In this document: positions 3,580 through 33,143 of the stretch, one piece after another | How positions within the stretch are numbered: the stretch's first letter is position 1 | How the letters are laid out: every line of letters begins with the position of its first letter | Origin: Candidatus Omnitrophota bacterium | GTDB lineage: Bacteria > Omnitrophota > Gorgyraeia > Zapsychrales > Fredricksoniimonadaceae | Length of the DNA: 64,000 bases | Direction of reading: 5' to 3' | NCBI GenBank assembly: GCA_903860135.1 | Contig: CAIOPG010000008.1 | Coordinates: 127 to 64,126, forward strand | Notes under the pieces: model-generated | What the model saw: only the letters and a program-made list of their open reading frames with translations | What the model was told of the DNA's origin: nothing | The model's database searches: none | Position numbers and translations under genes: made by a program

Positions 3580-5604
3580 CTATCCTTTGGCCTGCCGCGC
3601 AGCCAGGGCCTTGTCCACCGCCTGCACCGCCTTGGCCACGTCGCAATGGGTGATGGTGAGATCCCCCACTTTCACGGTCGGACCCTTATTGCATTTCTCA
3701 AAACAGAACGTCGCCTTGACCTGGACAATATCCTGCAGATTCTTCTCATGGATATACCGCGTCATGTGATGCAGGATGTCCTGTGCCCCTTTAAGGTAAC
3801 AGCTTGTCCCCACACACACCCGGATCTCGAGCTTGTCATGTTGTTTCCCGTCGACAATGATCATGGATTTCCCGCGCATGCGGCGGCGGGCATTGTAATG
3901 GGTGTGCAAGGCATGATGCGCCTTCTCACTGCCCGGGCTCCCGAGTTTCGATGCGTACAATTCCTTGACGTAGGGATTATCCTGCGACTTGTGCAGCTGC
4001 AGCATCTTGTCGGCTTCATACAGGCCCTTGGTGCGCTTGGCCTTGTACCCCGGCGTCAGATTGACCGGCTGACCGGCCCCATTAATACACCCGGCCGGAC
4101 AGGACATGAATTCAATGAAATGATACTGGATCTTCCCGGCCTTGAGCTTTTCGAGGAAAGCGCGCGCATTGGCCAAAGAATGCACCACCGCCAGGCGGAA
4201 GGTCTTGCCGGCTAAGGTCACTTCAGCCTCACGGATACCGGCCTCGCCGCGCACCGCGTGAAAATCCGGGTTCTCAAGCGTTTTGCCCTCGACTTTTTCA
4301 TACACATACCGCAACGCCGCCTCCATCACACCGCCGGTATTACCGAAAATGACACCGGCACCCGTCTTGAACCCCAGCGGCATATCCAGCGAGCCCGGCT
4401 GAAGGTCACGGAACTGAATGCCGAACTGATTGATCATCTGCACCAGCTCCTGGGTCGTGATCACATGATCAACCTCGGGCATGCCGTCGTGCGTGAATTC
4501 CGGGCGTTTGGCCTCGAATTTCTTGGCTGTGCACGGCATGATCGACACAACAACCATATTTTCGGGCGCGATCCCGAGCTCCGCCGCAAACAGCGACTTG
4601 GCCACAGAACCAAACATCTGCTGGGGCGATTTGCAGCTGGAAAGATTGGGGATCATTTCAGGATAATGCTGTTCCACAAACTTGACCCACGCCGGACAGC
4701 AAGACGTGAACATCGGCAGGATCCCGTTATTGGTCACACGGTTGATGAATTCATTGCCTTCTTCGAGGATCGTGAGGTCGGCGCTGAAACACGTATCGAA
4801 TACTTTCTTGAAACCCATGATCTTGAGCGCGGCCACGATCTGACCGGTCGTCAATTCACCCGGCTGATACCCGAACGCTTCCCCCAGCGCCACACGCACC
4901 GCCGGCGCGATCTGCGCGATCACAACCTTCTTTGTGTCATTCACGGATTTCCATACCGCTTCGACCTCCGAGCGCGGCGTCAAGGCTCCCGTCGGGCACA
5001 CGCGCGCGCACTGGCCGCACAACACACACGCAACACTTTCAAGGTCTTTCCCGAAAGCGGGCTGGACCACCACGTCATGGCCGCGATGCGCAAAATCAAT
5101 GGCACCGATACCCTGCACTTCCGCGCACATGCGCACGCAGTCGCCGCAAAGGATGCACTTGTTGGGATTGCGCACGATCGACGTCGAACTTGTGTCAATA
5201 GGATGTGGTTTCTGCACAGAACGGAAACGCACCTTGTCTACCCCCAGCCGCTTGGAAATATCCTGCAGTTTGCAATTGGTGCTTTTCACGCACGTCGTGC
5301 ATTCGCGGTCATGATTGGCCAGGATAAGCTCCAGCGCGATCTTGCGGATCTGACGCACTTCGGCGGTATTGGTTTTAACCTTCATCCCCGCTTCGGGAGG
5401 TGTCGAACACGACGTCAAAAGGCCGCGCCCCTCGATCTCAACGGTACACATCCGGCAGGCGCCGTACACACTCAGCTCCGACACATAGCAGAACGTCGGG
5501 ATATCGATATGGGCCTTGCGAATAACCTCAAGGAGGTTCTTCTCCCCCTCTATCGGCACTTCACGCCCGTCAATGTTGACATACTTAACAGCATCCATGG
5601 TCAA
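3580..5604 (-). CDS. hydA: [FeFe]-hydrogenase catalytic subunit HydA of a trimeric bifurcating-type enzyme, with a C-terminal thioredoxin-like [2Fe-2S] domain
   Basis: 674 aa. Has an N-terminal 2Fe-2S NuoG-like fold, 4Fe-4S motifs, the H-cluster signatures TSCCPAW / MPCTAKKFE / MSCPAGCINGAGQP, and a C-terminal CxxxxC...CxxxC NuoE-like domain, as in Thermotoga-type HydA. Confidence 0.9.
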   Translation of the reverse strand: MTMDAVKYVNIDGREVPIEGEKNLLEVIRKAHIDIPTFCYVSELSVYGACRMCTVEIEGRGLLTSCSTPPEAGMKVKTNTAEVRQIRKIALELILANHDRECTTCVKSTNCKLQDISKRLGVDKVRFRSVQKPHPIDTSSTSIVRNPNKCILCGDCVRMCAEVQGIGAIDFAHRGHDVVVQPAFGKDLESVACVLCGQCARVCPTGALTPRSEVEAVWKSVNDTKKVVIAQIAPAVRVALGEAFGYQPGELTTGQIVAALKIMGFKKVFDTCFSADLTILEEGNEFINRVTNNGILPMFTSCCPAWVKFVEQHYPEMIPNLSSCKSPQQMFGSVAKSLFAAELGIAPENMVVVSIMPCTAKKFEAKRPEFTHDGMPEVDHVITTQELVQMINQFGIQFRDLQPGSLDMPLGFKTGAGVIFGNTGGVMEAALRYVYEKVEGKTLENPDFHAVRGEAGIREAEVTLAGKTFRLAVVHSLANARAFLEKLKAGKIQYHFIEFMSCPAGCINGAGQPVNLTPGYKAKRTKGLYEADKMLQLHKSQDNPYVKELYASKLGSPGSEKAHHALHTHYNARRRMRGKSMIIVDGKQHDKLEIRVCVGTSCYLKGAQDILHHMTRYIHEKNLQDIVQVKATFCFEKCNKGPTVKVGDLTITHCDVAKAVQAVDKALAARQAKG

Positions 5605-7502
5605 ACCCCCGTGATAGCATCAAATTTACATGTGGCCGCGCAAACCCCGCAACGGATACAAATATCCGCGTTGAGGACATGCGGCTTCTTGACTTCACCT
5701 TTAATCGCGCCCACCGGGCACTTTTTCACGCACGCCGTACACCCCTTGCACTTGTCGGGATGGATCTCGGGCCTGGCCAGCTTCTTGCACTCACCCGTCG
5801 GGCAACGCTTGTCAACGACGTGAGCCAAATACTCATCATAAAAATACTTGAGCGTCGACAGGACCGGATTGGGCGCCGTCTTTCCAAGGCCGCACAAGGA
5901 CCCCTTCTGGACAACGATTGCCAATTCTTTAAGAAGGTCGAGCGTTTCCATCGTTGCCCGGCCTTCGGTGATATCTTCCAGAAGATACAGCATCTGCTTG
6001 GTGCCCTCGCGGCACAGGACACATTTGCCGCAAGATTCTTTCTGCGTGAACTGCATGAAATATTTCGCGATATTGACCATGCACGTCGATTTGTTCATGC
6101 ACACCAGCCCGCCTGAACCCACCATGGCGCCGATACTGCGCAGGGAATCAAAATCAAGCATCAGGTCAAAATGTTCGCGCGTCAGGCATCCGCCCGACGG
6201 ACCGCCGATCTGCACCGCCTTAAAACCCTCAGGATCGATCCGCCCCTTCTTGTCGGTCACACCGCCGCCCACCTGAAAAATGATCTCCTTCAGCGTAACG
6301 CCAAAAGGAACCTCAATGAGCCCCGTATTGGCCACATGGCCGGACAAAGCGAATGTCTTGGTACCCGGAGATGTCGGTGTTCCCAGCGCCCGGAACGCGG
6401 CAACTCCGATATTCATGATCAAAGGAACTGTGGCCAAGGTCTCAACATTATTGATGACCGTGGGTTTGCCCCACAGGCCGCTCTGTGCCGGGAACGGCGG
6501 CTTGGGCTTGGGCATCCCGCGATCGCCTTCGATGGACGCCATGAGCGCGGTCTCTTCGCCGCACACAAAAGCACCCGCGCCTTCCATAACATTCACGTTG
6601 AACTTCATGCCGGTGCCAAAAACATTATCACCGAGGATCCCTGCCGCCCGGGCATCGTCGCACGCCTGACGGACACGCTTGACCGCCAGCGGATATTCCG
6701 CCCGCACATACACATACCCTTCATCGGCACCGATGGCGCGCGCCGCGATCATCATCCCCTCGATCACCGCGTGCGGATTGCCTTCCATCACCGAGCGGTC
6801 CATGAACGCCCCCGGATCCCCTTCGTCACCGTTACAAATAATATATTTCTTGTCATTCTTCTGCACACGGCACACATCCCATTTCTTGCCCGTCGGGAAA
6901 CCACCGCCGCCACGCCCGCGCAGGCCGGAATCGATCAAATCCTTGCAAATAGCTTCGGGCGTCATCTCCATATAGGCTTTCTTGGCCGCCGCATACCCGC
7001 CGATAGCTTGATATTCCTGAATATCTTCAGGATTCAGCTCGCCGCACTGCTTGAGGACAAAGCGCGACTGGCGCTGGTAGAAAGGGATCTCTTTCTGCGA
7101 CCGGCAATGCTGTCCTGACACAGGATCAACATACAAAAGGCTGTCGATAACCTCACCGTTCATCAAGGTTTTTTCGACAACACTTTTCACATCCGCAGGT
7201 GTAACCCGATTATAAAGGATATCATCGGGCATGATCTTGACCAAAGGCCCCATCTGGCAAAACCCCTGACAGCCGCTCTTGGAAATATACACCGTGCCGC
7301 CCTTGTCCGTACTGGAAGAAGCCCCTTCAAATGTCGTAACCACTTTAAGCCCAAGGGCATTGACCTCAGCCGCAAAAGCCTTATATACCTCCATCGCCCC
7401 ATTGGCCACACAGCCGGTTCCGGTACAAATGATGATCTTTTTCTTCAAGCCGCCCTTGCCCTCGATGATCAATGCGGCGGAACCCTCCTTAAACTGACAC
7501 AT
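5601..7502 (-). CDS. hydB: NuoF-like flavoprotein subunit HydB (NADH-binding, FMN, Fe-S) of the bifurcating hydrogenase
   Basis: 633 aa. Has an N-terminal thioredoxin-like domain, the NuoF 51-kDa core (GLRGRGGGGFPTGKKW, SLCGLG) and C-terminal 2x[4Fe-4S] motifs. Overlaps hydA by 4 nt. Confidence 0.9.
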   Translation of the reverse strand: MCQFKEGSAALIIEGKGGLKKKIIICTGTGCVANGAMEVYKAFAAEVNALGLKVVTTFEGASSSTDKGGTVYISKSGCQGFCQMGPLVKIMPDDILYNRVTPADVKSVVEKTLMNGEVIDSLLYVDPVSGQHCRSQKEIPFYQRQSRFVLKQCGELNPEDIQEYQAIGGYAAAKKAYMEMTPEAICKDLIDSGLRGRGGGGFPTGKKWDVCRVQKNDKKYIICNGDEGDPGAFMDRSVMEGNPHAVIEGMMIAARAIGADEGYVYVRAEYPLAVKRVRQACDDARAAGILGDNVFGTGMKFNVNVMEGAGAFVCGEETALMASIEGDRGMPKPKPPFPAQSGLWGKPTVINNVETLATVPLIMNIGVAAFRALGTPTSPGTKTFALSGHVANTGLIEVPFGVTLKEIIFQVGGGVTDKKGRIDPEGFKAVQIGGPSGGCLTREHFDLMLDFDSLRSIGAMVGSGGLVCMNKSTCMVNIAKYFMQFTQKESCGKCVLCREGTKQMLYLLEDITEGRATMETLDLLKELAIVVQKGSLCGLGKTAPNPVLSTLKYFYDEYLAHVVDKRCPTGECKKLARPEIHPDKCKGCTACVKKCPVGAIKGEVKKPHVLNADICIRCGVCAATCKFDAITGV

Positions 7503-19453: not shown

Positions 19454-21217
19454 CTACTTGATATACAAAGGGCGAGACTTGTACTTTGTATGCAACAGCT
19501 TGTGCGACGTGTGCGACAGCGGCTTCTCCAGAAAATCCTTGTACAGCTTCTGGACATGCACATTCTCATGCGAACAACGGTGCTTGAGCCCGGCATCCTC
19601 ATCGTAAAGCCCCTTGGCGCGCTGGCAACGGATCTCGTCGGTCACCATATACGGCTGACCGCCGCCACCCACACACCCACCGGGACACGCCATGACCTCG
19701 ATGAAATGATACGGCAGGGGCTGATTGTTCTTGCGCGCCTCACGGACTTTCTCCATAACCATCTTGACATTCTTCAAGCCATGCGCCACCGCGATCCTGA
19801 CATCCGTACCCTTAACATTGACAGTGGTTTCCTTGACACCCTTTAAGCCGCGCACCGCGGTAAAGTTCACGTCTTTCAAGTTCTCGCCGGTGATCGCAAA
19901 ATACGCTGTGCGCAGGGCCGCTTCCATGACGCCGCCTGTGGCGCCAAAAATAGTGCCGGCACCGCCGTACTCGCCGAGCATCTGATCCGCTTCCTCGTCG
20001 GGCAGGTCCTTGAAGTCAACCCCCGCCTGCTTGATCATGCGGATCAGCTCGCGGGTCGTCAGCGACACATCCACATCCTGAAAACCTGAAGAAGACATAT
20101 CCTCATTGCGATTGATCTCATGTTTCTTGGCCGTGCAGGGCATGATCGAAATGACCTTGATCTTCGCCGGATCGAGCTTCTGCTGTGCGGCATAATACGT
20201 CTTGGTCAGCGCGCCGACCATTTCGTGCGGGCTCTTGGCCGTCGAGAAAAGATCAAGCATATCCCCGTGATACTTCTCAAGGTAATCGACCCAGGCCGGG
20301 CAGCAACTGGTGATCAGCGGCAACGGCCCCTTGTTGTGCAGGAGGCGCTCCACAAATTCGGTGCCCTCTTCCATGATGGTCAGATCAGCGCCGAAATTGG
20401 TATCAAACACCGTCTTAAAACCCAGGCGCCTGAGCAAAGCGTAAAGTTTCTTGGTCAGGTTGGTGCCCACCGGATACCCGAACCCCTCACCGACCGCCAC
20501 GCGCACCGCTGGCGCGATCTGGACCACGCAATGATTATCCTGGTTCTGCAGAAGCTCCCAGACTTTTTGTGTCTCGTCATTCTCGAAAATAGCACCCGTC
20601 GGGCAATGCGCCGAGCATTGGCCGCAACCCACACACGGGGATTCCGCCAGCTGGATATCGCCTGCCGGAGAAATACGCGTCTTAAACCCCCTGTCAATGA
20701 ACGACAGCGCCCAGACATCCTGCATATTCTGGCACACATCGATACAGCGCCCGCACTTGATGCATTTCTTGGGCTCCAGAATGATCGTGCCCGTAGACTT
20801 GTCCACCGGGATATTCGGCAGTGTCCGTTCAAAGCGGTCGTCACGGATACCGAAATCCGCGCAGATCTTCTGCAGTTCGCAATTATTGTTGCGCCCGCAC
20901 ACCAGGCAATCGGTCGGATGATTGGACAGGATCAGCTCAAGCACCGTGCGGCGGGTCTGCACGATCTCAGGGTCCTGGGTCAGGATATCCATGCCGTTCT
21001 CGATGGGCGTACAGCAGGCGCGCAGCATCTTGCGGTTTCCTTTAGCCTTAACAATACAAATACCGCAGCCGGCCGACGGCGCAAGGTCCGCGTGCTTGCA
21101 CAGCGTCGGGATATTGACCTGCACCTTGCGGGCCGCTTCAAGGATCGTCGCGCCCTGGTCGATCTCGACCGGGATCCCGTTAATGACCGCTTTGACTTTC
21201 GTGGTGACCATGGACAT
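19454..21217 (-). CDS. hndD: [FeFe]-hydrogenase catalytic subunit of a tetrameric Hnd-type NAD(P)-linked hydrogenase
   Basis: 587 aa. Has an N-terminal 2Fe-2S, 4Fe-4S ferredoxin motifs, and H-cluster motifs TSCCPAW / MPCTAKKHE / MACPGGCVGGGGQP. Confidence 0.9.
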   Translation of the reverse strand: MSMVTTKVKAVINGIPVEIDQGATILEAARKVQVNIPTLCKHADLAPSAGCGICIVKAKGNRKMLRACCTPIENGMDILTQDPEIVQTRRTVLELILSNHPTDCLVCGRNNNCELQKICADFGIRDDRFERTLPNIPVDKSTGTIILEPKKCIKCGRCIDVCQNMQDVWALSFIDRGFKTRISPAGDIQLAESPCVGCGQCSAHCPTGAIFENDETQKVWELLQNQDNHCVVQIAPAVRVAVGEGFGYPVGTNLTKKLYALLRRLGFKTVFDTNFGADLTIMEEGTEFVERLLHNKGPLPLITSCCPAWVDYLEKYHGDMLDLFSTAKSPHEMVGALTKTYYAAQQKLDPAKIKVISIMPCTAKKHEINRNEDMSSSGFQDVDVSLTTRELIRMIKQAGVDFKDLPDEEADQMLGEYGGAGTIFGATGGVMEAALRTAYFAITGENLKDVNFTAVRGLKGVKETTVNVKGTDVRIAVAHGLKNVKMVMEKVREARKNNQPLPYHFIEVMACPGGCVGGGGQPYMVTDEIRCQRAKGLYDEDAGLKHRCSHENVHVQKLYKDFLEKPLSHTSHKLLHTKYKSRPLYIK

Positions 21218-21252
21218 GGAATAACTCCTTTTAACCCGTAGTAATGCTTATA

Positions 21253-22992
21253 TCACTGGCGGATAACCGCGCCGAATTTACACACGTCATAACAGTTGCC
21301 GCACCCGATGCACTTTTCCATATCTATGGTGTACTTGCTCTGACGATCGCCGCTGATGGCCGTCACCGGGCAATTACGGGCGCACAGGCCGCAAGCCGTG
21401 CAACGCTCCTTGTTGATGCTGTAAGACACCAGGCTCGCGCATTTGCCTGAAGGGCAGCGCTTGTCCATGATGTGCGCCTTATATTCAGCCTCAAAATATT
21501 TCATGGTCGAAAGAACCGGATTGGCCGCTGTCTGCCCCAGCCCGCACAAGGATGCCTTCTGCATCGCCTGGGCGATCTGGTTGAGCTTGACCAGGTCTTC
21601 GGCCTCACCTTTGCCCTCGGAGATCTTCTTCAAGATCGACAGCATCTGCGTGCCGCCGATACGGCAGGGCGCGCATTTGCCGCAGGACTCATCGACGCAA
21701 AAACCAAGGTAAAATTTGGAGATGTCCACCACGCAATCATTCTCGTCGAGCACGATCATCCCGCCCGACCCCATGATCGACCCCAGCTTCTGGAGCGTTT
21801 CATAGCCCACCGGCGTGTCAAAATGATCTTCCGGAATAACGCCGCCCGACGGGCCGCCGGTCTGGATGGCCTTGATGGCTTTGTTGTTGAACACGCCGCC
21901 GCCAACCTCAAACACGATCTCGCGCAGGGTGATGCCCATGGGCACTTCCACCAGCCCGGAATTCTTGACCTTGCCGGTCAGGGCGAAAACCTTGGTGCCC
22001 GTCGAACCTTCAATGCCGATCCGTCCAAAAGCTTCGCCGCCTTTAAGAAAGATATACGGCACATTGGCGAGGGTCTCGACATTGTTGATGACCGTCGGCT
22101 TGCCCCAGAGCCCCTTGACCGACGGGAACGGCGGCCGCGGCCGTGGATAACCACGCAGGCCTTCGATCGAGGCAATGAGCGCGGTCTCTTCCCCGCACAC
22201 AAAAGCGCCTGCCCCCAAACGGATCTCAATATCAAAATCAAAGCCGAACCCGAAAATATTCTTGCCCACAATGCCCTTCTGGCGGCACACATCGATCGCT
22301 TTCTGGATGCGCTCGACCGCCAGCGGATACTCGGCACGGATATAAAAAATACCCTGGCTGGCACCGGTGGCCAGGCCGCCGATCATCATGCCCTCGATGA
22401 CAGAATGCGGGTCGCCTTCAAGGACAGAACGATCCATGTACGCACCAGGATCGCCCTCATCGCCGTTGCAAATGATATATTTCACATCACCTTTGACGCC
22501 ACGGGTGATATTCCACTTCATCCAGGTCGGGAAACCCGCGCCGCCACGCCCGCGCAGGCCAGATTTCTTCATTTCTTCAATGACCTTTTCCGGCCCCATG
22601 GCCAGTGCCGCGGTCAGCCCTTCATACCCGTCCTGGGCAATGTAATCCTCGATCGATTCAGGGTCAATGATGCCGCAATTGCGCAAGACAACACGCATCT
22701 GGCGATTCTTCTTATCCAGGGCCAGCGCCACCACCTTCTCGCCGCCGACAACCGTCTTTTCGACGATCAGGGGGATATCGCTGTTCTTAAGACCAGCATA
22801 CACAAACCCTTCGGGCAGGACCTTGGCCACAATGCCCTTGTTGTAAATACCGATATCCGCCACCAGCACCGCCTGGGCTTTCTCGGCGAGGCCGTTGTCT
22901 CGCAGATGGCTGTTGATGGCCACGTAAAAATCACGCATTTCCTTTTTAAGGGTGCCGCTGGTGTCTTGAAGGAGGATCCGTTTCATACCCAA
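21253..22992 (-). CDS. hndC: NuoF-like flavoprotein subunit of the tetrameric hydrogenase
   Basis: 579 aa. Has the NuoF core (GLRGRGGAGFPTWMKW, SLCGLG) and C-terminal 2x[4Fe-4S] (CTACGLCARNCP, CIGCGNCYDVC). Confidence 0.9.
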   Translation of the reverse strand: MGMKRILLQDTSGTLKKEMRDFYVAINSHLRDNGLAEKAQAVLVADIGIYNKGIVAKVLPEGFVYAGLKNSDIPLIVEKTVVGGEKVVALALDKKNRQMRVVLRNCGIIDPESIEDYIAQDGYEGLTAALAMGPEKVIEEMKKSGLRGRGGAGFPTWMKWNITRGVKGDVKYIICNGDEGDPGAYMDRSVLEGDPHSVIEGMMIGGLATGASQGIFYIRAEYPLAVERIQKAIDVCRQKGIVGKNIFGFGFDFDIEIRLGAGAFVCGEETALIASIEGLRGYPRPRPPFPSVKGLWGKPTVINNVETLANVPYIFLKGGEAFGRIGIEGSTGTKVFALTGKVKNSGLVEVPMGITLREIVFEVGGGVFNNKAIKAIQTGGPSGGVIPEDHFDTPVGYETLQKLGSIMGSGGMIVLDENDCVVDISKFYLGFCVDESCGKCAPCRIGGTQMLSILKKISEGKGEAEDLVKLNQIAQAMQKASLCGLGQTAANPVLSTMKYFEAEYKAHIMDKRCPSGKCASLVSYSINKERCTACGLCARNCPVTAISGDRQSKYTIDMEKCIGCGNCYDVCKFGAVIRQ

Positions 22993-24032: not shown

Positions 24033-27000
24033 TTATGACGCCAGGGGTTTTGCCACGCTGTCAGCCCCCAGCCCCAATAACGGCAACGGGCTGGAGATTG
24101 GGGTGATGTTAAGGATGACCGGCACGACCCCGCTGAAATCGCCGCGTTCGAACTGCGCGACCATGGCCGGGTCAAGCGCCATCTCGACCCCCCGCCCCTC
24201 ACGCGCCACATCGAGCGAAAGGTTGTTGCTGTTGATGTCAATACCACCGTCAACGACCGTTGCATTGTCAAATGCAGAACGCATCCTGATCTTTGTGTGA
24301 TCTTGGGGATCTTTTTCCGTAACATAGATAAGCTCAGCCGCTACAACAGGATTAATCTTTTGATTAAAATGTGACCCTGCATCTTCATCCTTGTAAAACA
24401 AGCCCATCGTTAAACCGATGTTCCAAAAACCCGTTATAGTGGAGTCCATGACAACCTCCGACAGAGACTTAGTACCCTCCAACGACACTTCCCTGAGCTT
24501 AGCCAACAGATCAGAATTCTCCTTGATCTTTCCTTTTAACTTTTTAGCAAAGGCGACTAGGTCCTCCCTGTCCTTTTTCGCTTGCTTAAAGATCTGCGAC
24601 ACCCAGTTGGCCGAAACATAGATCGATGAACCTGGTGCATCACTTTGTTTCGATTTAAGCAGGTCTCCATTCGCCCTAACAACAAGCTCCGGATAGAGCC
24701 TCTTTAAAAGCTGACTATATGGCTCCACGGTTGTTTTGTCCTTTACAGCAAACCACCGAGTGGCCGCCGCATTCACAACCCCCAGCACCATTGCTTCTTG
24801 ATTGGGCCCGCCCAGAACATCCTGTAACTCAACGATCAGTAGTTCTTTATCAAGCTCTTTCCCGCCTGCCACCGCCGCCTGCCATCGCGCAAGTAAAGCT
24901 TCAACCTGCGGCGTCGCCTGACCATCATCAACAACACCAGGTGTTGTCGCCGCCGCGTCAACGGGGGCAAAGATGACCCGAGCTTCCTGACCGTCTATTT
25001 TAAGAGGATATTCTACAATAAACTGAATTTTTTGCGGATCCATTAGCTTGATCCGATCCACATAATGAGAAACAGCCCTCCTTATCTGATGAGTAACCTT
25101 TCCATTCTTTTTAATAACCTCAAGAATTGTCTTTTCAAAACTTATTTTTTTTCTCATGACTTGACTCAATCTAGCTAATCGAGATTGTTTATTCCGTCCA
25201 AATTCATGGGGATAATTCACCTCAAGAATACGGAAGATTTGCTCTGGGGTCCACTTATATTCCATACTCAAACCAGGAGGCAATTGAAAACCATTGCCCG
25301 TAGATATTTTATGTATCAACCACTTTTGAAAGGTATCATTATTCAATAAATCTCTGAACGCATTTCCCGCATCAGTATAAGACGAAATCTCAAAATCATC
25401 TCCTATCTCCCCCAATAAATGCTTCAAAGAATCCTCTTCCTTCGAGAATGCTGCCCTTATCAAGGCATCAATATTCGGCGAAGACTTTTCTCTCCGCAGT
25501 AATACCTGATCGGACGACTGCAGATTTAGATAGATATCTTTTAAATCAACCTCTACGACAGTTCCCTTGATCTGAAATTCAGGCTTGATCTGTACTTTTA
25601 ATTCTTCTCCTGAAGGATATCCTATTATATGATCCACCAGCATTGCCATACCCGGGTTGAGCTCTCCCTGCTCGCTGGATAAACCAATCCTCATAGCAAC
25701 ACCGAAAAGCGACCGGCCTGCCTGCGTTGTGCCGTTATTTAGGCTACCAATCCTCTTTAATAACGCAAGTGCCTCAGGATCATCTGCCAGCTTTTGTTGC
25801 GTTATCATCTGAGCAACGCGGACGCTGTACCACTGAAGCACGTCCGCAGGCCAGTTTTGCCAGGGAACATTGGCATACCGTTCTATTTTGTGCTGGATTT
25901 CTACCGCTTCCGGAGAGATTATTTCTTGCGTCGCCGCGTCTGTCACATGAACAACCATCGCAACCACTGCCTGCTTGCCGCTCGACGGAACAGGCGTCTC
26001 TGCGGCATGATCCACGGTCATCGCATTCTCAATGCCCGGTGGTATCTGAAGCCCTCCCGAAAAATACTTGCGCGCGATGGTTTCGCCCGAGGCTTGCGGT
26101 TCTTCCTTGATGTAATTGAATACGCCCTTGCGGTAGGCGGCGAGGTATTGGGCGTAGATCTTTTCCTTGACGGCAGGGTCGTCGCTTGTGACGCCGTTGA
26201 TCTTGGACTTGTTGGTATAAACCTGGTTCAACAGGGCATCTTTCAAGGCGCGCTTGTACCAGGTGGACAGGATCATGGCGTAGAAGATCTGGCGGAGCTG
26301 GGTGAAATTCTGACCTTCGTTCACTTCCTGCTCGATCTGGGGGATGATGACCTCGCGCATGACTTGTTTGGCGAGCTCTTGCGCCCCCCGCCCATTCCCT
26401 CCCCACGCTGAAGCGGGGGTGGGTGTTATAACGGGATCACCGGTTACAGTCTGTGTTACCTGTGCAGCCATATAATCGGACTCCAGCATGACTTTTAAAT
26501 GGGCGTCGGTAATGTAGGCGGTGTTGTGGCGTTCGAGGACCTTGGCTTTATCGGCGGTGATCCAGACTTTGTTGAAGGTATCGACCGGGATATCGATCGT
26601 GCCGAATTGCGCCCGGGCTTTCGCGTAGATCCTGGCCCAGAACTCCTTGCCCAGCCCTTTCTCGGGATACACCAAGGACGCGGTCAACTGCTTGAGGATA
26701 TAATCCTGCGCCAGCATGTCGCGGCCGAGCTCGGTCTTGCCAAGGTCGTCGGGAATGATACGGTCCTTCTCATACGGACTCAGGTTCACCCACTGATCGT
26801 CAGCCTTGACCGTAAGAGAAGCGAGGAAATACTTGATGAGCTTTTCGGATTCCGCTTGAAACGGCGCGCCTTCGACCGCCAGCTTAGAATCACCGGCATC
26901 GATGATGAAATCAAACAACAGTGGGTTCTCCGGATGGACTTTTAGCCCGCGCGCGATCACCGGTGTATACGCCGGACTTACCGTCACCATGCTACCCGGT

Positions 27001-27128
27001 GCCGGCAGGCTAAGCACCTGCGCCAAGGCACGCGGCGGAGTCACCAGCGACAATACAAAACTCGCCAGGACAAAGCCGGCAATAAGCCGGAAAGAAACAC
27101 TCTTACGCGAAGCAACGTGACACATCAT
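24033..27128 (-). CDS. Large (1031 aa) secreted hypothetical protein with an N-terminal Sec signal peptide
   Basis: The signal-like N-terminus (hydrophobic core FRLIAGFVLASFVLSLV, then ...ALAQV) supports secretion. No domain recognised. The N-terminal-coding half (~25700-27128) is GC-rich and the C-terminal-coding half (~24033-25700) is AT-rich. An A8 homopolymer sits at 25145-25152. Confidence 0.55.
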   Translation of the reverse strand: MMCHVASRKSVSFRLIAGFVLASFVLSLVTPPRALAQVLSLPAPGSMVTVSPAYTPVIARGLKVHPENPLLFDFIIDAGDSKLAVEGAPFQAESEKLIKYFLASLTVKADDQWVNLSPYEKDRIIPDDLGKTELGRDMLAQDYILKQLTASLVYPEKGLGKEFWARIYAKARAQFGTIDIPVDTFNKVWITADKAKVLERHNTAYITDAHLKVMLESDYMAAQVTQTVTGDPVITPTPASAWGGNGRGAQELAKQVMREVIIPQIEQEVNEGQNFTQLRQIFYAMILSTWYKRALKDALLNQVYTNKSKINGVTSDDPAVKEKIYAQYLAAYRKGVFNYIKEEPQASGETIARKYFSGGLQIPPGIENAMTVDHAAETPVPSSGKQAVVAMVVHVTDAATQEIISPEAVEIQHKIERYANVPWQNWPADVLQWYSVRVAQMITQQKLADDPEALALLKRIGSLNNGTTQAGRSLFGVAMRIGLSSEQGELNPGMAMLVDHIIGYPSGEELKVQIKPEFQIKGTVVEVDLKDIYLNLQSSDQVLLRREKSSPNIDALIRAAFSKEEDSLKHLLGEIGDDFEISSYTDAGNAFRDLLNNDTFQKWLIHKISTGNGFQLPPGLSMEYKWTPEQIFRILEVNYPHEFGRNKQSRLARLSQVMRKKISFEKTILEVIKKNGKVTHQIRRAVSHYVDRIKLMDPQKIQFIVEYPLKIDGQEARVIFAPVDAAATTPGVVDDGQATPQVEALLARWQAAVAGGKELDKELLIVELQDVLGGPNQEAMVLGVVNAAATRWFAVKDKTTVEPYSQLLKRLYPELVVRANGDLLKSKQSDAPGSSIYVSANWVSQIFKQAKKDREDLVAFAKKLKGKIKENSDLLAKLREVSLEGTKSLSEVVMDSTITGFWNIGLTMGLFYKDEDAGSHFNQKINPVVAAELIYVTEKDPQDHTKIRMRSAFDNATVVDGGIDINSNNLSLDVAREGRGVEMALDPAMVAQFERGDFSGVVPVILNITPISSPLPLLGLGADSVAKPLAS
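26396..26422. repeat. Third copy of the GC hairpin motif (CCCTCCCCACGCTGAAGCGGGGGTGGG), embedded in-frame in the 1031-aa CDS
   Basis: The core CACGCTGA[A/C]GCGGGG is identical to the copy at 19243-19269. It encodes ...ASAWGGNG... in the protein. Confidence 0.35.
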
Positions 27129-27281: not shown

Positions 27282-27569
27282 TTAGCGATAAACACTCTTG
27301 CGAAGGCCGATATCAATCAAGATAATATTGCGGGCCTGATCATCAATGTCATACAGAATACGCCAATCCCCGGTACGCACACGCCAGATACCCTTAAGCT
27401 GTCCCGACAACTTCTTGACACCCACAGGCCTAGGCGCGGATGATAACCCGGCAATAACAACCCTGACTCTGGCCTGAACAGTCAGCGGTAATGACTCAAA
27501 GGTCTTCAACGCCCTCCTGTCAGCCCAAACAATACTATACTTCAAAGGGAATTCCTTTTCCCGAAGCAT
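27282..27569 (-). CDS. RelE/ParE-family type II toxin (mRNA interferase)
   Basis: ~95 aa with a RelE-like core (KYSIVWADRALK...GIWRVRTGDWRILYDID...IILIDIGLRK). It overlaps the end of the upstream antitoxin. Confidence 0.65.
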   Translation of the reverse strand: MLREKEFPLKYSIVWADRRALKTFESLPLTVQARVRVVIAGLSSAPRPVGVKKLSGQLKGIWRVRTGDWRILYDIDDQARNIILIDIGLRKSVYR

Positions 27570-27795
27570 AATTGCGGCGTGCCTGCACGACACGAAGGGC
27601 AAGGAGCGCATCTTTCTCGTCGAAAGCGTCTTCCACCAAGCTCATCAACTCGTCAAAACGACCTGCCGACATCATCACCGCCTCGGCCTTGCCGTATTGG
27701 GTAATGAAACAGGTCTCTCCACTCTGCGCAATATCCTCAATGACCTCGGACATATGATCGCGTGCTTGCGTGGCGGCGATAATCTTGATGGGCAT
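27535..27795 (-). CDS. Phd/YefM-family antitoxin paired with the RelE toxin
   Basis: ~86 aa from MPIKIIAATQARDHMSEVIED..., a typical Phd N-terminus. The track ORF start at 27843 is an upstream extension. Confidence 0.65.
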   Translation of the reverse strand: MPIKIIAATQARDHMSEVIEDIAQSGETCFITQYGKAEAVMMSAGRFDELMSLVEDAFDEKDALLALRVVQARRNYASGKGIPFEV

Positions 27796-27853
27796 AATTT
27801 TGTATCCTTTTCTGTACAAATCATAACACGCGATGACGTACAAATCAAGGGGA

Positions 27854-29602
27854 TCACGCCCGACTTTGGACGATCCTCAGGAGTTCACGGGCGGCTTCTT
27901 CGGGGCCTTTGCGTTCCCATCCGGCAAGCCCCAGGCGGGTGCGCATCTGGCCGACGAACACATCCCGGCGGAAGAATTCACTGAAATATTTCTTCGCCAG
28001 CGGCTCATGCATATCTTTATACTGCGCCGGCCCGAAAACATTAGCGAAATAGGAATGCACCAGCCCGGTCGTGGTCGTGGTCCCCTTGCTCATCGCTGTC
28101 CCCTCGCGGAACACCGCCATGGCTTTTTCAGGGTCCGGAAAACGCTCAAGGATCGGATGGTCATCGTCAATGGCGTCATAATTGTTCACATAAAGGATAA
28201 AATCGATCTTTTGCCCCTTGATGATCTGGTCAAAGGTCGTTACCGGGATAATGATACGGGCATTGACCTGGTTGGCGTTCATGATGATGGCGCGGTCGAT
28301 CTGACCGAGCGCGTAGCCCGGCTGAAGGTCGTCAAGCCTCAGGAAAGCACCGATCTCGGTGCCATAGCCCAGCACCTGGCCGGAAGGTGCTATCTGGATC
28401 GATCCCATGTCATCGGCGATCACGATAAGGTCCTGGATCTCCTCCTCGCCGATAGAACGGAAGGCTTCGAGCGTTTCCGACTTGCCTGCCCCGGTATCGC
28501 CGATAAAAAGGATCGTCCGGTCAAGGTCGCCCTTGAGGATAAGCCGCACCAGCGCCCCGTGGAACGGCAGGACACCGCGTTTCATCATGATCACATTGTG
28601 GAGCGTCAACACCATTTTCTTGAGATAACCAAAATACCCGAATTCCGGCAACAGCGGCACCGCCCCAACGAGCATCCCCGCCTGCGTGTCATCAAAAAAT
28701 ATCTGGCTCGAAGAAAATCGGGCCAACGACTCAGGAGGGACGCCATAAGCAAACACCGCGTCGGGCGTACGGCCAAGGTCATCATCGTCAGCCATTTCAA
28801 ACAGATTGCACAGGGCATGCCCGAGTTCCGCAAAATCATGATGGAAATAAATGAAGATCACCAACGCCCCGACCTTGGCAGGATAACACAGCCATTCGCG
28901 CGCGTTAAACTCGATGCCTTTCAACGGGTTATCATTCACCCGCTCGAACCGTCCGGTGCGTTTGTTCATCGGCGGGGTCAGGATCAAGGGCGGATAGATC
29001 AGTATCTGGCGCATCATGGGCACGCGGTTCAACGGTGTGTATTCCGCGCTCAGGAAAGGCACCGCCCGGGTCACCGCGATCGTCGACACTTCGGCACCGG
29101 CCGCGACCTGGCGGTAAATGCGCGGATGCTGGCCGGTCACATTCTCCTGGATATCACGGTAAATGCCGCGCACCAAATTTGTCAGCTGGCCGACGGTCGC
29201 ATTGAACGTGCGGTAAGGCCGCTTGTCCCAGTCGCGCCCCTTGGAATCGGAAATGATGAACCGGTCAAAACTGCGCCAGTAATTATAAAGGTATTCGATC
29301 AGATCATTGAACCGCGAGGCATCGCGCAATAAAACCGCCGCCGCCGGTACCACGTTGGGCACTAGGTTGGCCGGCATTTTGACCAGGAACTTGAAGGTCG
29401 CGATCAGGTCGTCAATATCATCTTTGGTAATATCCTTCTTCCCAAAAACATCAAGCAGGATCGAGCGGCGCTTGACGAGCTTCTGCAAAGCCGTGGTAAC
29501 GATCCCGGTAAAAAGTTCACTCGACAGGACCTCTTCTTCCGTCTCGCAAATGCGGTCGTGGATGTGAAGGATGATCTTGTTGCCCCGGATGTCGTATTCC
29601 AT
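27854..29602 (-). CDS. 582-aa protein with an HPr-kinase/phosphorylase-like P-loop domain in its C-terminal half; function unknown
   Basis: GDTGAGKSETLEAF...VIADD closely matches the HprK/P catalytic-domain P-loop (GxSGxGKSE...ADD). A long N-terminal region is unlike HprK. Confidence 0.45.
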   Translation of the reverse strand: MEYDIRGNKIILHIHDRICETEEEVLSSELFTGIVTTALQKLVKRRSILLDVFGKKDITKDDIDDLIATFKFLVKMPANLVPNVVPAAAVLLRDASRFNDLIEYLYNYWRSFDRFIISDSKGRDWDKRPYRTFNATVGQLTNLVRGIYRDIQENVTGQHPRIYRQVAAGAEVSTIAVTRAVPFLSAEYTPLNRVPMMRQILIYPPLILTPPMNKRTGRFERVNDNPLKGIEFNAREWLCYPAKVGALVIFIYFHHDFAELGHALCNLFEMADDDDLGRTPDAVFAYGVPPESLARFSSSQIFFDDTQAGMLVGAVPLLPEFGYFGYLKKMVLTLHNVIMMKRGVLPFHGALVRLILKGDLDRTILFIGDTGAGKSETLEAFRSIGEEEIQDLIVIADDMGSIQIAPSGQVLGYGTEIGAFLRLDDLQPGYALGQIDRAIIMNANQVNARIIIPVTTFDQIIKGQKIDFILYVNNYDAIDDDHPILERFPDPEKAMAVFREGTAMSKGTTTTTGLVHSYFANVFGPAQYKDMHEPLAKKYFSEFFRRDVFVGQMRTRLGLAGWERKGPEEAARELLRIVQSRA

Positions 29603-29820: not shown

Positions 29821-30489
<669 letters not shown>

Positions 30490-30614
30490 CGCAGACCTTT
30501 CATTAAAAAATTGATGTGAATTTTAAGCTATTCTTTAGTAACCGCCATCACGCGGGCCAGTAATTCATAACTGAGCTTGTAAATGGGTAAACGCTGATAC
30601 CGCGCCATGGGTTA

Positions 30615-30654
30615 CTTTCTTTTCAAAAACCGTGCGCCCCGCACGAGGCGCACG
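30615..30654 (-). terminator. Intrinsic terminator after DUF1566 paralogue 2 (part of the ~890-bp tandem repeat unit)
   Basis: On the minus strand: 8-bp stem CGUGCGCC/GGCGCACG with an 8-nt loop, followed by GUUUUUGAAAAG. Confidence 0.45.
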
Positions 30655-30680: not shown

Positions 30681-31367
30681 TCAATAACTCCGGACACAAC
30701 GCACGAGGTGGATGTCGCTCTTGTTCATGAGGCTGCCGCTCTGGTCGCCATTGGTGAAGTCCTGGATCCAGGCGGCCATTTCCGCCAGAGAGTAGTAGTC
30801 AGTGGCCGACCAGTAGAAGGACGACGCACAACCCAATGCAGTTCTGTTGTCGAATAAAAAAGCCAGTATAGATTTTCCTGGCAAAACCCAGTCTGTATAT
30901 CCCCCCTCAACTAAATTGTTACAATAAGACACTGCGGCAGACCAGTTTGCATTTGGTGCATCGCCATCGCTCGGCGTTGTCATCCAGCCCGGATAACCGA
31001 CATATACCGCCGTCGTGCCCGTACACGCCTGACCGGCTGTCTTGCCGGCGCAGGGATTATTAGTGCTACTCCCACCACCTATGGCGACAAACCCGTAAGT
31101 AATAACCGGGCTTGTCGCTGTTTTAACACAAGCCTTCATGCCGTTGGTTATGGAATTATCGTACCATAATGCTCCCACGCTACTGGCATCACACGTGAAA
31201 GCGGTTGACCCAACCGTTAGTTTCCGCGACACCCTCATATTCAGATAATCCCCCACCGGCGCAGGATAATACGCCGTGAGCCTCAGGCTTTCAGCAAAAA
31301 GTAGACCGGGAAAAACTAAGAGAAGAGATAGAGAGAGAGAGAAGGAAAATTGTCGACATGGTTTCAT
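30681..31367 (-). CDS. DUF1566 (Lcl C-terminal-like) secreted protein, paralogue 2
   Basis: 228 aa and ~85% identical to paralogue 1. The signal peptide has a shorter SL repeat (FSFSLSLSLLLVFPG), encoded by an interrupted (GA)n tract at 31321-31344. Confidence 0.65.
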   Translation of the reverse strand: MKPCRQFSFSLSLSLLLVFPGLLFAESLRLTAYYPAPVGDYLNMRVSRKLTVGSTAFTCDASSVGALWYDNSITNGMKACVKTATSPVITYGFVAIGGGSSTNNPCAGKTAGQACTGTTAVYVGYPGWMTTPSDGDAPNANWSAAVSYCNNLVEGGYTDWVLPGKSILAFLFDNRTALGCASSFYWSATDYYSLAEMAAWIQDFTNGDQSGSLMNKSDIHLVRCVRSY

Positions 31368-31503
31368 CGCAGACCTTTCATTAAAAAATTGATGTGAATT
31401 TTAAGCTATTCTTTAGTAACCGCCATCACGCGGGCCAGTAATTCATAACTGAGCTTGTAAATGGGTAAATGCTGATACCGCGCCATGGGTTACTTTCTTT
31501 TCA

Positions 31504-31542
31504 AAAACCGTGCGCTCCGCACGGGGCGCACGAACGAAATAA
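31504..31542 (-). terminator. Intrinsic terminator after DUF1566 paralogue 3 (repeat-unit copy)
   Basis: Near-identical copy of the 30615-30654 hairpin with one stem mismatch, followed by a U-tract. Confidence 0.4.
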
Positions 31543-31558
31543 TCAAATAACCAAATGA

Positions 31559-32216
31559 TCAATAACTCCGGACACAACGCACGAAGAGGACCGAGCTCTT
31601 GTCTCTGGTAAAGCAGCTGTTGTCGAAGTTGAAATCCACGGCCCAGGCATGGTTGGGATAGGACTCAGAGGCCGACCAGTAGGAGGACGGCCTACAACCC
31701 AAAGCAGTGTTGTTGTCGAACAAAAAAAACAGGATAGATTTTCCTGGCAAAACCCAGTCTGTATATCCCCCGTAATCTAAATTGTTACAATAAAAAACTG
31801 CGGTAGACCAGTCTTCATCTTGTGCATCGCTCGGCGTTGTCATCCAGCCCGGATAACCGACATATACCGCCGTCGTACCATCACACGCCTGACCTGCCGT
31901 CTTACCCGCGCAAGGATTAGTGCTACTCCCTCCTACGGACACCCACCCATAGGTTGTTGGGCTCAAGGCTGTCTTGACACAGGCTTTCGTGCCGTTGGTT
32001 ATGGAATTGTCGTACCATAGTGCTCCCACGCTACTGGCATCACACGTGAAAGCGGTTGACCCAACCGTTAGTTTCCGCGACACCCTCATATCCAGATAAT
32101 CCCCCGCCGGCGAAGGATAATAGGTCGTGAGTGTGAGGCTTTCAGCAAAAAGCAGGCCGGGAAAAACTAAGAGAAGAGAGAGAGAGAGAGAGAGAAAATT
32201 GTCGACATGGTTTCAT
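31559..32216 (-). pseudogene. DUF1566 paralogue 3, frame-shifted in or next to the (GA)n tract (ATG at 32216 is out of frame with the body)
   Basis: The conserved start ATGAAACCATGTCGACAATTTTCT at 32216 is followed by the (GA)n tract at 32171-32195. The sequence after the tract reads GAGAAAATT, versus GAGAAGGAAAATT in copies 1 and 2 (4 nt fewer). The track only finds an ORF restarting at MRVSRKLTV. Confidence 0.5.
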
Positions 32217-32399
32217 CGCTGGCCTTTCTTTCAAAATTTAAACCGGATTGGATTGTGCAATGGCCGTTTTTCATCAACGCAACCGTTTGCACAAAAACAT
32301 GCACTATTATTCCAACTGACCTTCCACAATTTTACCGTCTAAGAGAGACCCGGGTTCAACCCGCATTACCTCTGTCTATTGAAAAATGCGAGTTAACCT

Positions 32400-32423
32400 G
32401 AACTTATGAACTTATGAACTTAA
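32400..32423. repeat. Tandem 8-mer repeat GAACTTAT x3 in the divergent intergenic region between DUF1566 paralogue 3 and brnT
   Basis: gaacttatgaacttatgaactta read directly from the sequence. Confidence 0.8.
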
Positions 32424-32596
32424 AATAGCATATTCTTCAAGACGCATCCACTCTTTTGTCGCATTAACAGGCCCGGCGCCACAGAAAATAATAGTGCGTC
32501 CCGATTACTACGATTACCGATTATTTCCTTGAAGCCATACTGAAAAGTTTTCGATTGTTGACAAAAGGCAGACAACAGGATATATTTGGCATAGAT

Positions 32597-32881
32597 ATGT
32601 TTGATTGGGATGAAATTAAAAATGAACACCTCAAGCGTGAGCGCGACATTTCTTTTGAAGAAGTCGTTTTCTGGATCGAGAACGACGGACTTCTAAAGGT
32701 CGAAGACCATCCTAATCAACAGAAGTATCCGGGACAAAGGATTTATATTGTTTGTATAGAAACGTATGTTTATTTAGTGCCTTTTGTAGAACAAAATGGA
32801 ATAGTATTCTTAAAAACCATTATCCCGAGCCGTAAAGCAACCAAAGAACTTTTAAAAAGAGTGCCGCATGAGCCCAATTAA
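32597..32881 (+). CDS. brnT: BrnT-family (DUF497) type II toxin
   Basis: The N-terminus MFDWDEIKNEHLKRERDISFEEVVFWIEND matches the BrnT/DUF497 consensus (FEWDE.K...N..KHG..F.E). The internal ATG at 32597 is preferred over the track start. Confidence 0.65.
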   Translation: MFDWDEIKNEHLKRERDISFEEVVFWIENDGLLKVEDHPNQQKYPGQRIYIVCIETYVYLVPFVEQNGIVFLKTIIPSRKATKELLKRVPHEPN

Positions 32882-33143
32882 GCTTACTCAAGAAGAAGAT
32901 CAAATGCTGCGTTCATACGAACGGGGCGAGTGGCGGCCTGTCAAGAATATGCCATCGGAAATCGATCGTTTTCAACAAATGGCTAAACAGGCATTACGGA
33001 AAGGCCGCCGGATAAATATTCGGCTTTCTGAACGGGATGTTTACAAATTACAAATTTCTGCGTTGCGTGAAGGCGTTCCCTATCAAACTTTAATTTCAAG
33101 CGTCCTGCATAAATATATTTCCGGTCATTTAGTAACACAATAA
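32868..33143 (+). CDS. brnA: BrnA-family antitoxin (RHH/CopG-like C-terminus)
   Basis: 91 aa. C-terminal RINIRLSERDVYKLQISALREGVPYQTLISSVLHKYISG matches the BrnA antitoxin family. Overlaps brnT by 14 nt. Confidence 0.65.
   Translation: MSPIKLTQEEDQMLRSYERGEWRPVKNMPSEIDRFQQMAKQALRKGRRINIRLSERDVYKLQISALREGVPYQTLISSVLHKYISGHLVTQ

Follow-up and report, generated by a model that had tools for sequence, protein, structure and literature searches.

A Probable CT-Repeat Phase Switch in the Leader of a Tandem Lcl_C (DUF1566) Gene From an Uncultivated Omnitrophota Bacterium

Copy 3 Is Out of Frame With Both of Its Start Codons

A 64,000-nucleotide stretch of contig CAIOPG010000008.1 (assembly GCA_903860135.1) from a Candidatus Omnitrophota bacterium, here termed the window, encodes three tandem paralogues of the Lcl_C family (formerly DUF1566), all on the minus strand and each with a (CT)n tract in the region that codes for its signal peptide. 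The third of these genes, copy 3, is very probably a phase-variable contingency gene that is now OFF: its start codon and its body are both intact, and the length of the intervening CT tract leaves the two in different frames. A preliminary description of this DNA had proposed a recent or reversible OFF state mediated by a simple sequence repeat (SSR), rather than an old pseudogene, and this proposal is supported by in-frame alleles found elsewhere, by a CT-unit difference in copy 1, and by the coding constraint on the body of copy 3.

The three copies share one plan, consisting of an identical 23-nucleotide (nt) leader, the (CT)n tract, and a conserved anchor (TTAGTTTTTCCCGG). The tracts, of 15, 6, and 10 units in copies 1, 2, and 3, are the only long dinucleotide repeats in the window; runs of (AG)6 or longer are restricted to these three leader tracts, and none is expected (0 in 100 shuffles of the window). 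The start codon and leader of copy 3 are intact at 32216, as had been described, and the leader (ATGAAACCATGTCGACAATTTTC) is identical in all three copies. An AAAGG motif lies 6 nt upstream of this first start codon (ATG1), and both the start region and the motif are perfectly kept across the copies. The leader also contains a second start codon in another frame (ATG2, in the context ATGAAACCATGTCG), which the preliminary description overlooked (Table 1).

The phase of each gene follows from L, the number of nucleotides from ATG1 to the TTAG anchor (TTAGTTTTTCC). When L is 0 mod 3, the body continues the precursor that begins at ATG1 (MKPCRQF..., with a classical charged n-region); when L is 2 mod 3, it continues the precursor that begins at ATG2 (MSTIF..., without charge); and when L is 1 mod 3, it lies directly behind a TGA and has no start. 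Copies 1, 2, and 3 have L values of 60, 48, and 46 nt, respectively. With L at 1 mod 3, copy 3 is not in frame with ATG1, in agreement with the preliminary description, and because this is the only phase of the three without a start codon, the gene is truly OFF. Read from ATG1, it gives MKPCRQFSLSLSLSSLSFSRPAFC followed by a stop codon. By the same arithmetic, the gain of one CT unit (48 nt) restores the ATG1 frame, as had been suggested for a change of one unit, whereas the loss of one unit (44 nt), the gain of two (50 nt), or the repair of an AGGA (+4 nt) that had also been suggested leads to ATG2 and not to ATG1.

The preliminary description further placed the frameshift at the boundary of the SSR. 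The sequence past the tract does differ, reading ...GAGAGAAAATTGTCGAC on the plus strand in copy 3 and ...GAGAAGGAAAATTGTCGAC in copies 1 and 2, and the boundary difference itself is real (TTTTCTCTCT in copy 3, TTTTCCTTCTCT in copies 1 and 2). The shift is likewise real, but it is not assignable to the boundary specifically; among natural alleles of copy 3, the differences are of whole CT units. The body was correctly described as free of internal stops, and its frame is open for 203 codons. This frame does not begin at MRVSRKL, as had been stated, but opens directly past the TGA (32215-32213) and takes in the hydrophobic core and the region of cleavage, LSLSLSLLLVFPGLLFA/ES.

A functional product might still arise from copy 3 if translation began at another codon, or if ribosomes shifted frame on the CT tract, given the second ATG in the leader and a 176-amino-acid (aa) open reading frame (ORF) that begins with the ATG at 32089. 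We find little room for this: neither ATG of the leader is in frame at 46 nt, and the mature frame has no ATG, GTG, or TTG from the TGA up to 32089. The ATG at 32089, which is the first in-frame start, lies past the signal peptide, and the product that begins there is missing two parts of a cysteine-rich secreted protein, its signal peptide and the conserved TTYYPSP module. Nor was a frameshift-stimulating element seen, though no search was aimed at one. The alternative start codon that the preliminary description had raised as an objection to its own reading therefore exists, but leaves copy 3 OFF at the present tract length.

Copy 3 shows the features of a contingency locus, namely an uninterrupted SSR in the 5′ coding region with a unit that is not a multiple of 3, frame shifting by unit number, and length polymorphism among near-identical genomes. 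In the mechanism that we propose, slipped-strand mispairing during replication would add or remove CT units and so move the gene between three states. At L = 46, ribosomes that initiate at ATG1 would stop after 24 codons and those that initiate at ATG2 after 13; the OFF state would then yield no secreted lectin, and a single slip in either direction would turn copy 3 ON again. We infer from the sequence that slippage is the cause, that the change is reversible in the population, and that the exported protein is lost in the OFF state.

Table 1. Positions of the three paralogues, the leader elements of copy 3, and associated features in the window.
Feature	Position	Strand	Remarks
Copy 1	29821..30489	-	222 aa; in frame with ATG1 in the window; (CT)15 at 30434-30463
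Copy 2	30681..31367	-	228 aa; in frame with ATG1; interrupted tract (CT)6-AT-(CT)2 at 31330-31341
Copy 3	start codon 32216, stop 31559	-	Frameshifted leader; body frame open
Copy 3 ATG1	32214..32216	-	Gives MKPCRQF... leader, K and R in n-region; same in copies 1 and 2
Copy 3 TGA	32213..32215	-	From the A-TGA of ATG1 + A; closes the third frame, occupied now by the mature domain
Copy 3 ATG2	32206..32208	-	8 nt past ATG1, other frame (MSTIF... leader); used by called P0001 and P0011 (copy 3) and P0002 (copy 2)
Uninterrupted (CT)10	32175..32194	-	(AG)10 on plus strand; copy 3 signal-peptide coding region; candidate switch element
Premature stop from ATG2	32167-32169	-	13-aa peptide
Premature stop from ATG1	32142..32144	-	24-aa peptide in the present OFF state
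Copy 3 body	31559..32212	-	h-region, cleavage site, TTYYPSPAGDY module, Lcl_C; intact, no start before 32089
Copy 3 hypervariable C-terminal cassette	31583..31729	-	Directly before conserved VRCVRSY; all 12 differences from P0001 lie here
Copy 2 cassette	30705-30860	-	
Copy 1 cassette	29845-29990	-	
Terminator-like hairpin and T-run	31508..31524	-	3′ of copy 3
TGAACTTA x3 tandem octamer	32399..32422	.	Copy 3/brnT-like intergenic region (340 nt); unchanged in L001 and L015

Tract Length Varies Among Assemblies

The tracts were compared across ENA/NCBI metagenome consensus assemblies; one scaffold label (BUCK21-1) suggests an origin in the stratified-lake dataset PRJEB38681 (PMC8121793). In an alignment of 21,751 bp, the window and a 128-kb ENA contig (L001) have no mismatch, and their only gap, of 2 nt, is in the copy 1 tract. 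Copy 1 accordingly has an L of 60 nt (ON) in the window, whereas in L001 its L is 58 nt, exactly one CT unit fewer, and the gene is OFF and called as 170 aa; the copy 1 OFF allele, one unit shorter, is recorded in contig ERZ27313599 k141_359998. Another assembly, L015, has the same tract lengths as the window, the only differences being a ∼75-nt patch of copy 2 with the sequence of copy 1 and three single-nucleotide polymorphisms (SNPs) in the spacer.

At the DNA level, three sources (the window, L001, and L015) carry the OFF tract of copy 3, (CT)10. Members of its 90% cluster are the 176-aa OFF product, present on 4 contigs, and two longer products, P0011 (249 aa) and P0001 (247 aa). The mature part of P0011 is 100% identical to that of copy 3 in the window, and its leader (MSTIFSLSLSLSLLLVFPG) implies (CT)12, an L of 50, and the ATG2 frame; on the contig that bears it, all three paralogues are called in frame. 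P0001 belongs to a related strain, and implies a copy 3 tract of (CT)9, an L of 44, and again the ATG2 frame. In a homology search, the related-strain products of copies 3 and 2 read ...ETMSTIFSLSLSLLLVFPG... and MSTIFLLSLSLSLLLVFPG..., respectively, in frame with ATG2. The copy 2 allele of this strain (P0002) is likewise in the ATG2 frame and has an apparently uninterrupted tract. Among assemblies of the window's own strain, the interrupted copy 2 tract is invariant. The longest contigs that bear allele products measure 128,154, 128,156, and 128,160 bp, and these differences fit the inferred changes in CT units. Mutability thus follows tract length and purity, with variation in (CT)15 and (CT)10 and none in the interrupted tract of copy 2, as expected for slippage.

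Several observations weigh against a phase switch. The (CT)9 and (CT)12 alleles of copy 3 are back-inferred from protein sequences, and the length differences are between consensus assemblies, some of which may be re-assemblies or co-assemblies of overlapping samples. None of the recorded alleles has copy 3 in the ATG1 frame, and the ATG2 leader (MSTIF), which is seen only in gene calls, has no positive charge and is at most a putative signal peptide. In addition, the SLSLSL peptide is kept in a relative without a pure CT tract (P0008/L016), which encodes LSLSLSLLLVFP with mixed codons. Because the peptide is kept without the pure tract, the CT tract also meets a constraint at the protein level.

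The phase of the tract and the differences between assemblies could also reflect sequencing or assembly artefacts at a dinucleotide repeat, as SSRs are liable to stutter in the polymerase chain reaction, and every source is a short-read metagenome assembly (with MEGAHIT-style k141 names; PMC8121793). Such an explanation is barely credible here. The same (CT)10 is found in the DNA of the window, L001, and L015, and the 176-aa OFF product on 4 contigs, which also answers the concern over a sequencing error voiced in the preliminary description. Three separate tracts vary between the assemblies, always by whole CT units, and there is no other difference in 21.7 kb; the 2-unit difference in copy 3 is unlikely to arise from stutter, and a fourth locus shows the same pattern in an unrelated run. 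The JGI metagenomes, when scanned for exact matches to the end of the tract plus the anchor, yielded none.

Gene callers report the OFF alleles of these loci as N-terminally truncated proteins of 170-176 aa (L001 and L015), and extend the ATG2-frame alleles of copy 3 (P0001 and P0011) to 247-249 aa via a fortuitously open upstream frame (MHVFVQTVALMKNGHC...). Because the genes are split into such 170-176-aa "fragments" or given spurious 247-249-aa forms, annotation pipelines mis-describe these loci.

Copy 3 Is Constrained and Related to the Legionella Lcl Head Domain

With the C-terminal cassette left out, comparison of the copy 3 body with copies 1 and 2 gives a ratio of nonsynonymous to synonymous substitution (dN/dS) of 0.24-0.26, at a dS of 0.35-0.42. 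Copy 3 has clearly been under coding constraint over most of its divergence, and a dN/dS of ∼0.25 indicates that it is not an old pseudogene. Its frame also holds an intact hydrophobic core and cleavage region (LLVFPGLLFA/ES). Alternatively, copy 3 could be a dead or decaying pseudogene with a fixed frameshift, its decay helped by loss of the promoter that copies 1 and 2 share; the OFF state in 4 of the ∼7 recorded contigs, an upstream region unrelated to that of copies 1 and 2, and the failure to observe the ATG1 frame would all fit. We nevertheless consider this very unlikely, in light of the stop-free 203-codon frame, the low dN/dS against both in-frame paralogues, the uninterrupted CT tract, the perfectly kept start region and AAAGG, and the in-frame alleles P0011 (with an identical mature sequence) and P0001 (from the related strain).

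The Pfam model PF07603 (Lcl_C) matches copy 3 with 46.9 bits, copy 2 with 41.7 bits, and copy 1 with 31.5 bits, the last being just below the curated cut-off of 34.9 bits. When a profile of the subfamily was searched against the PDB, one solved structure was matched, 8Q4E (E = 1.5e-10), which is the C-terminal domain of Legionella Lcl (Lcl-CTD). This domain is the trimeric, C-type-lectin-like head of an adhesin and binds glycosaminoglycans (PMC11162425). The C-terminal half of the proteins studied here is homologous to it by sequence, with the PF07603 score above cut-off for copies 2 and 3. They differ from Lcl in having no collagen-like stalk, in their conserved cysteines (Lcl-CTD is without disulfides), and in a distinct N-terminal TTYYPSPxGxY module. 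An AlphaFold2 model built from a 7-sequence alignment is of low confidence, with a predicted local distance difference test (pLDDT) score of 43.

On the basis of this homology, the three paralogues and a fourth gene elsewhere would each encode a secreted protein of the Lcl_C (C-type-lectin-like) type, similar to an adhesin head and with a C-terminal, ligand-facing cassette of its own; their role as adhesins or lectins is putative. If the genes switch independently, a population would display varied combinations of these proteins.

A Fourth Homologue and More Distant Relatives

The same samples yielded another large contig, on which a fourth homologue (P0003, P0014, and P0015) lies near truA, rplM, and rpsI. 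Its leader differs from that of the array (ATGAAATATGTTAAAAAG), but here too there are start codons in two frames, at an offset of 7, with a TAA that closes the third frame and a (CT)n tract. At the DNA level this gene is OFF in both L017 (47 nt) and L021 (53 nt), and the P0003 allele implies 55 nt, which places it in frame with its own second ATG. In L021, the gene is flanked by genes for HEPN/nucleotidyltransferase and PIN proteins.

A further 13, more distant relatives share the signal peptide and a TTYYPSPxGSY module; they come from metagenome-assembled genomes labelled Omnitrophota, Elusimicrobia, and Planctomycetales, and from JGI metagenomes. The matches from a GTDB scan are distant relatives that share this N-terminal module. 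The CT tract is present in none of the 13, and a protein-pattern scan of JGI recovered only three distant relatives with the N-terminal module, none of them with a CT tract. Because these distant relatives lack the tract, the hypermutable tract is lineage-specific. The distribution of the module itself suggests an Omnitrophota- or Elusimicrobia-like lineage.

The module, a signal peptide with (L/I)T(L/I)TTYYPSPxGSY immediately after it, is common to many predicted secreted proteins of the labelled genomes, and is located on the minus strand of the window at 32100-32170, 31250-31320, and 30370-30425, as well as in L005-L014 and L016-L020. No Pfam or NCBIfam model covers the (L/I)T(L/I)TTYYPSPxGSY module. 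Its C-terminal partners vary, and include Lcl_C in the present array, a weak C1q/BclA-like match in P0006, and a Peptidase_S74 chaperone domain in L016 (5205-6053). The N-terminal module may serve as a common anchor or sorting element for the heads of surface fibres.

The C-Terminal Cassettes Are Hypervariable

The last ∼50 codons before the invariant VRCVRSY diverge strongly among the paralogues, with a dN/dS of 1.1-3.0 in this small and hard-to-align sample. The same end of the protein varies between strains: all 18 of the 18 aa differences that separate the window from the alleles P0001, P0002, and P0017 (12 in copy 3, 2 in copy 2, and 4 in copy 1) fall within the C-terminal ∼55 residues, and none within the first ∼145. 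Diversification is concentrated on the putative ligand-facing end.

The patch of ∼75 nt in copy 2 of L015 (6001-6678), which is identical to copy 1, and the three SNPs in the spacer repeat correspond to 31060-31133 and 30592-30646 of the window, and the mosaic P0010, encoded on a contig of 1.3 kb, combines a copy 2 leader, a copy 3 middle, and a copy 1 tail. Together these suggest gene conversion among the copies; alternatively, they could represent assembly chimeras.

DUF1566 and C-type-lectin (CLec) folds, and their C-termini, are typical targets and variable regions of diversity-generating retroelements (DGRs). The locus might accordingly be read mainly as a DGR target array in which the CT tract is incidental, and both the confinement of all 18 between-strain differences to the C-terminal ∼55 residues and the elevated dN/dS of the cassettes are in keeping with such an origin. 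Other features speak against it: no second copy of any cassette that resembles a template repeat occurs within the 64 kb, the mismatches show no adenine bias, a regular-expression search of the window found no reverse transcriptase motif, and the three cassettes differ by indels and so are underivable from one template. A DGR at this locus is not supported, and we regard a mainly DGR-driven array as highly improbable; even if one were present, the SSR switch would remain.

Comparison With Known Phase-Variable Systems

The phase switch proposed for copy 3 is, by analogy with oipA and licA, a slipped-strand translational switch of a known type. In Helicobacter pylori, the genes oipA/hopH, sabA, sabB, hopZ, and babB carry CT repeats in the region that codes for the signal peptide (PMC10564699). 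As in oipA, the mature frame here is set by unit changes in a 5′ (CT)n tract through slipped-strand mispairing, and the ON state is marked by a conserved motif at the end of the signal peptide (FWLHA in OipA, LLVFPGLLFA here; PMC10564699). Both systems also involve paralogous families of surface, adhesin-type proteins. They differ in that the Hop proteins are beta-barrel porins of a host-restricted pathogen, whereas the present genes encode a small, secreted, lectin-like Lcl_C domain in an uncultivated environmental bacterium, and in that the two starts in two frames provide two potential ON phases here. Pfam assigns the proteins only to Lcl_C, and thus not to the Hop/OipA family.

This arrangement of starts is closer to that of licA (lic1) in Haemophilus influenzae, in which start codons in two of the three frames lie upstream of a CAAT repeat, so that one phase is OFF and two are ON (PMC2212159). 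The same multi-start logic is followed by copies 1-3 and by the fourth homologue, with starts in two of the three frames upstream of the repeat and the third frame closed (by TGA in the array), and natural alleles are called in both ON frames. In contrast to licA, which has a tetranucleotide repeat and encodes a cytoplasmic choline kinase, the repeat here is a dinucleotide, the protein is secreted, and part of the hydrophobic core of its signal peptide is translated from the repeat itself.

The opa genes of Neisseria are a multi-copy adhesin family with CTCTT repeats in the leader-peptide coding region, independent switching, hypervariable regions, and recombination between copies. The present genes resemble opa in that the hydrophobic core of their signal peptides is encoded by a pyrimidine repeat. 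The repeat unit of opa is a pentamer, however, and the fold of its product is different; gene conversion in the present array is only suggested (by the L015 patch and P0010).

Because the mechanism is well known, what is new here is confined to the host lineage, the protein family, and a two-start architecture kept at two loci. Phase variation by repeat slippage is a textbook feature of the host-adapted Helicobacter, Neisseria, Haemophilus, and Campylobacter, and has rarely been documented in uncultivated environmental bacteria. In the present case, the switch is legible straight from public metagenome assemblies, as otherwise base-identical genomes differ only in the number of CT units in a leader. 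The variation marks these DUF1566 proteins as the fastest-varied surface components of the organism, and consequently as candidates for its dominant interaction with other cells, phage, or particles in its ecology.

A more tentative reading, which we hold to be possible but rather doubtful, is that the array and the fourth locus together form a combinatorial system of surface variation. Four independent lectin genes, each with a three-state switch (a strong ATG1 leader, a weak or alternative ATG2 leader, or OFF), would be combined with the exchange of cassettes at their hypervariable, ligand-binding ends. If so, contingency and antigenic variation of the kind found in pathogens would occur in an environmental lineage that is free-living or epibiotic, and interactions with phage, predators, or host cells would presumably be the driver.

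Genomic Setting of the Array

The array is bordered by fmt/priA and a pair that includes a BrnT-like toxin on one side, and by a gene for a 582-aa P-loop protein on the other. Terminator-like hairpins occur 3′ of copy 3 and of copy 2, and the paralogues are apparently transcribed as separate units. A sigma-70 scan found no credible promoter upstream of any of the three copies, and returned only weak internal matches at the background rate. Copies 1 and 2 share a duplicated upstream region; that of copy 3 was correctly described as different, and has no similarity to it upstream of about -25 nt. The threefold tandem repeat noted there in the preliminary description (GAACTTAT) corresponds to the TGAACTTA octamer in another register (Table 1). 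A small hairpin (32351-32363) adjoins this octamer, and the brnT-like gene beyond it is divergent from copy 3.

Both spacers between the paralogues (31406-31486 and 30528-30608, minus strand) hold the same short ORF fragment, MARYQHLPIYKLSYELLARVMAVTKE followed by a stop codon, just past the terminator hairpin. It resembles a gene remnant carried along in the duplication unit. Its candidate assignment as the N-terminus of a four-helix-bundle, Avd-type protein was dropped, as it has no Pfam or NCBIfam match.

Toxin-antitoxin pairs bracket the array, with a BrnT-like toxin and a CopG-like antitoxin at 32555-33143 (plus strand) and, on the other side past the 582-aa gene, Phd/YefM-like and ParE-like genes at ∼27284-27797 (minus strand). 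The 582-aa protein (27854-29602, minus strand) has only a weak local P-loop/PEPCK-like match, and a 1031-aa ORF (24033-27128, minus strand) has no Pfam or NCBIfam match; both are syntenic and conserved in all assemblies of the organism. Elsewhere in the window, several families of direct repeats, 15.6 kb apart and with 74-82% identity, link 4066-6581 with 19652-22215 and correspond to two diverged, paralogous gene sets, the second of which bears NuoF-like (Complex1_51K) and Fe-hydrogenase (Fe_hyd_lg_C) domains in L001.

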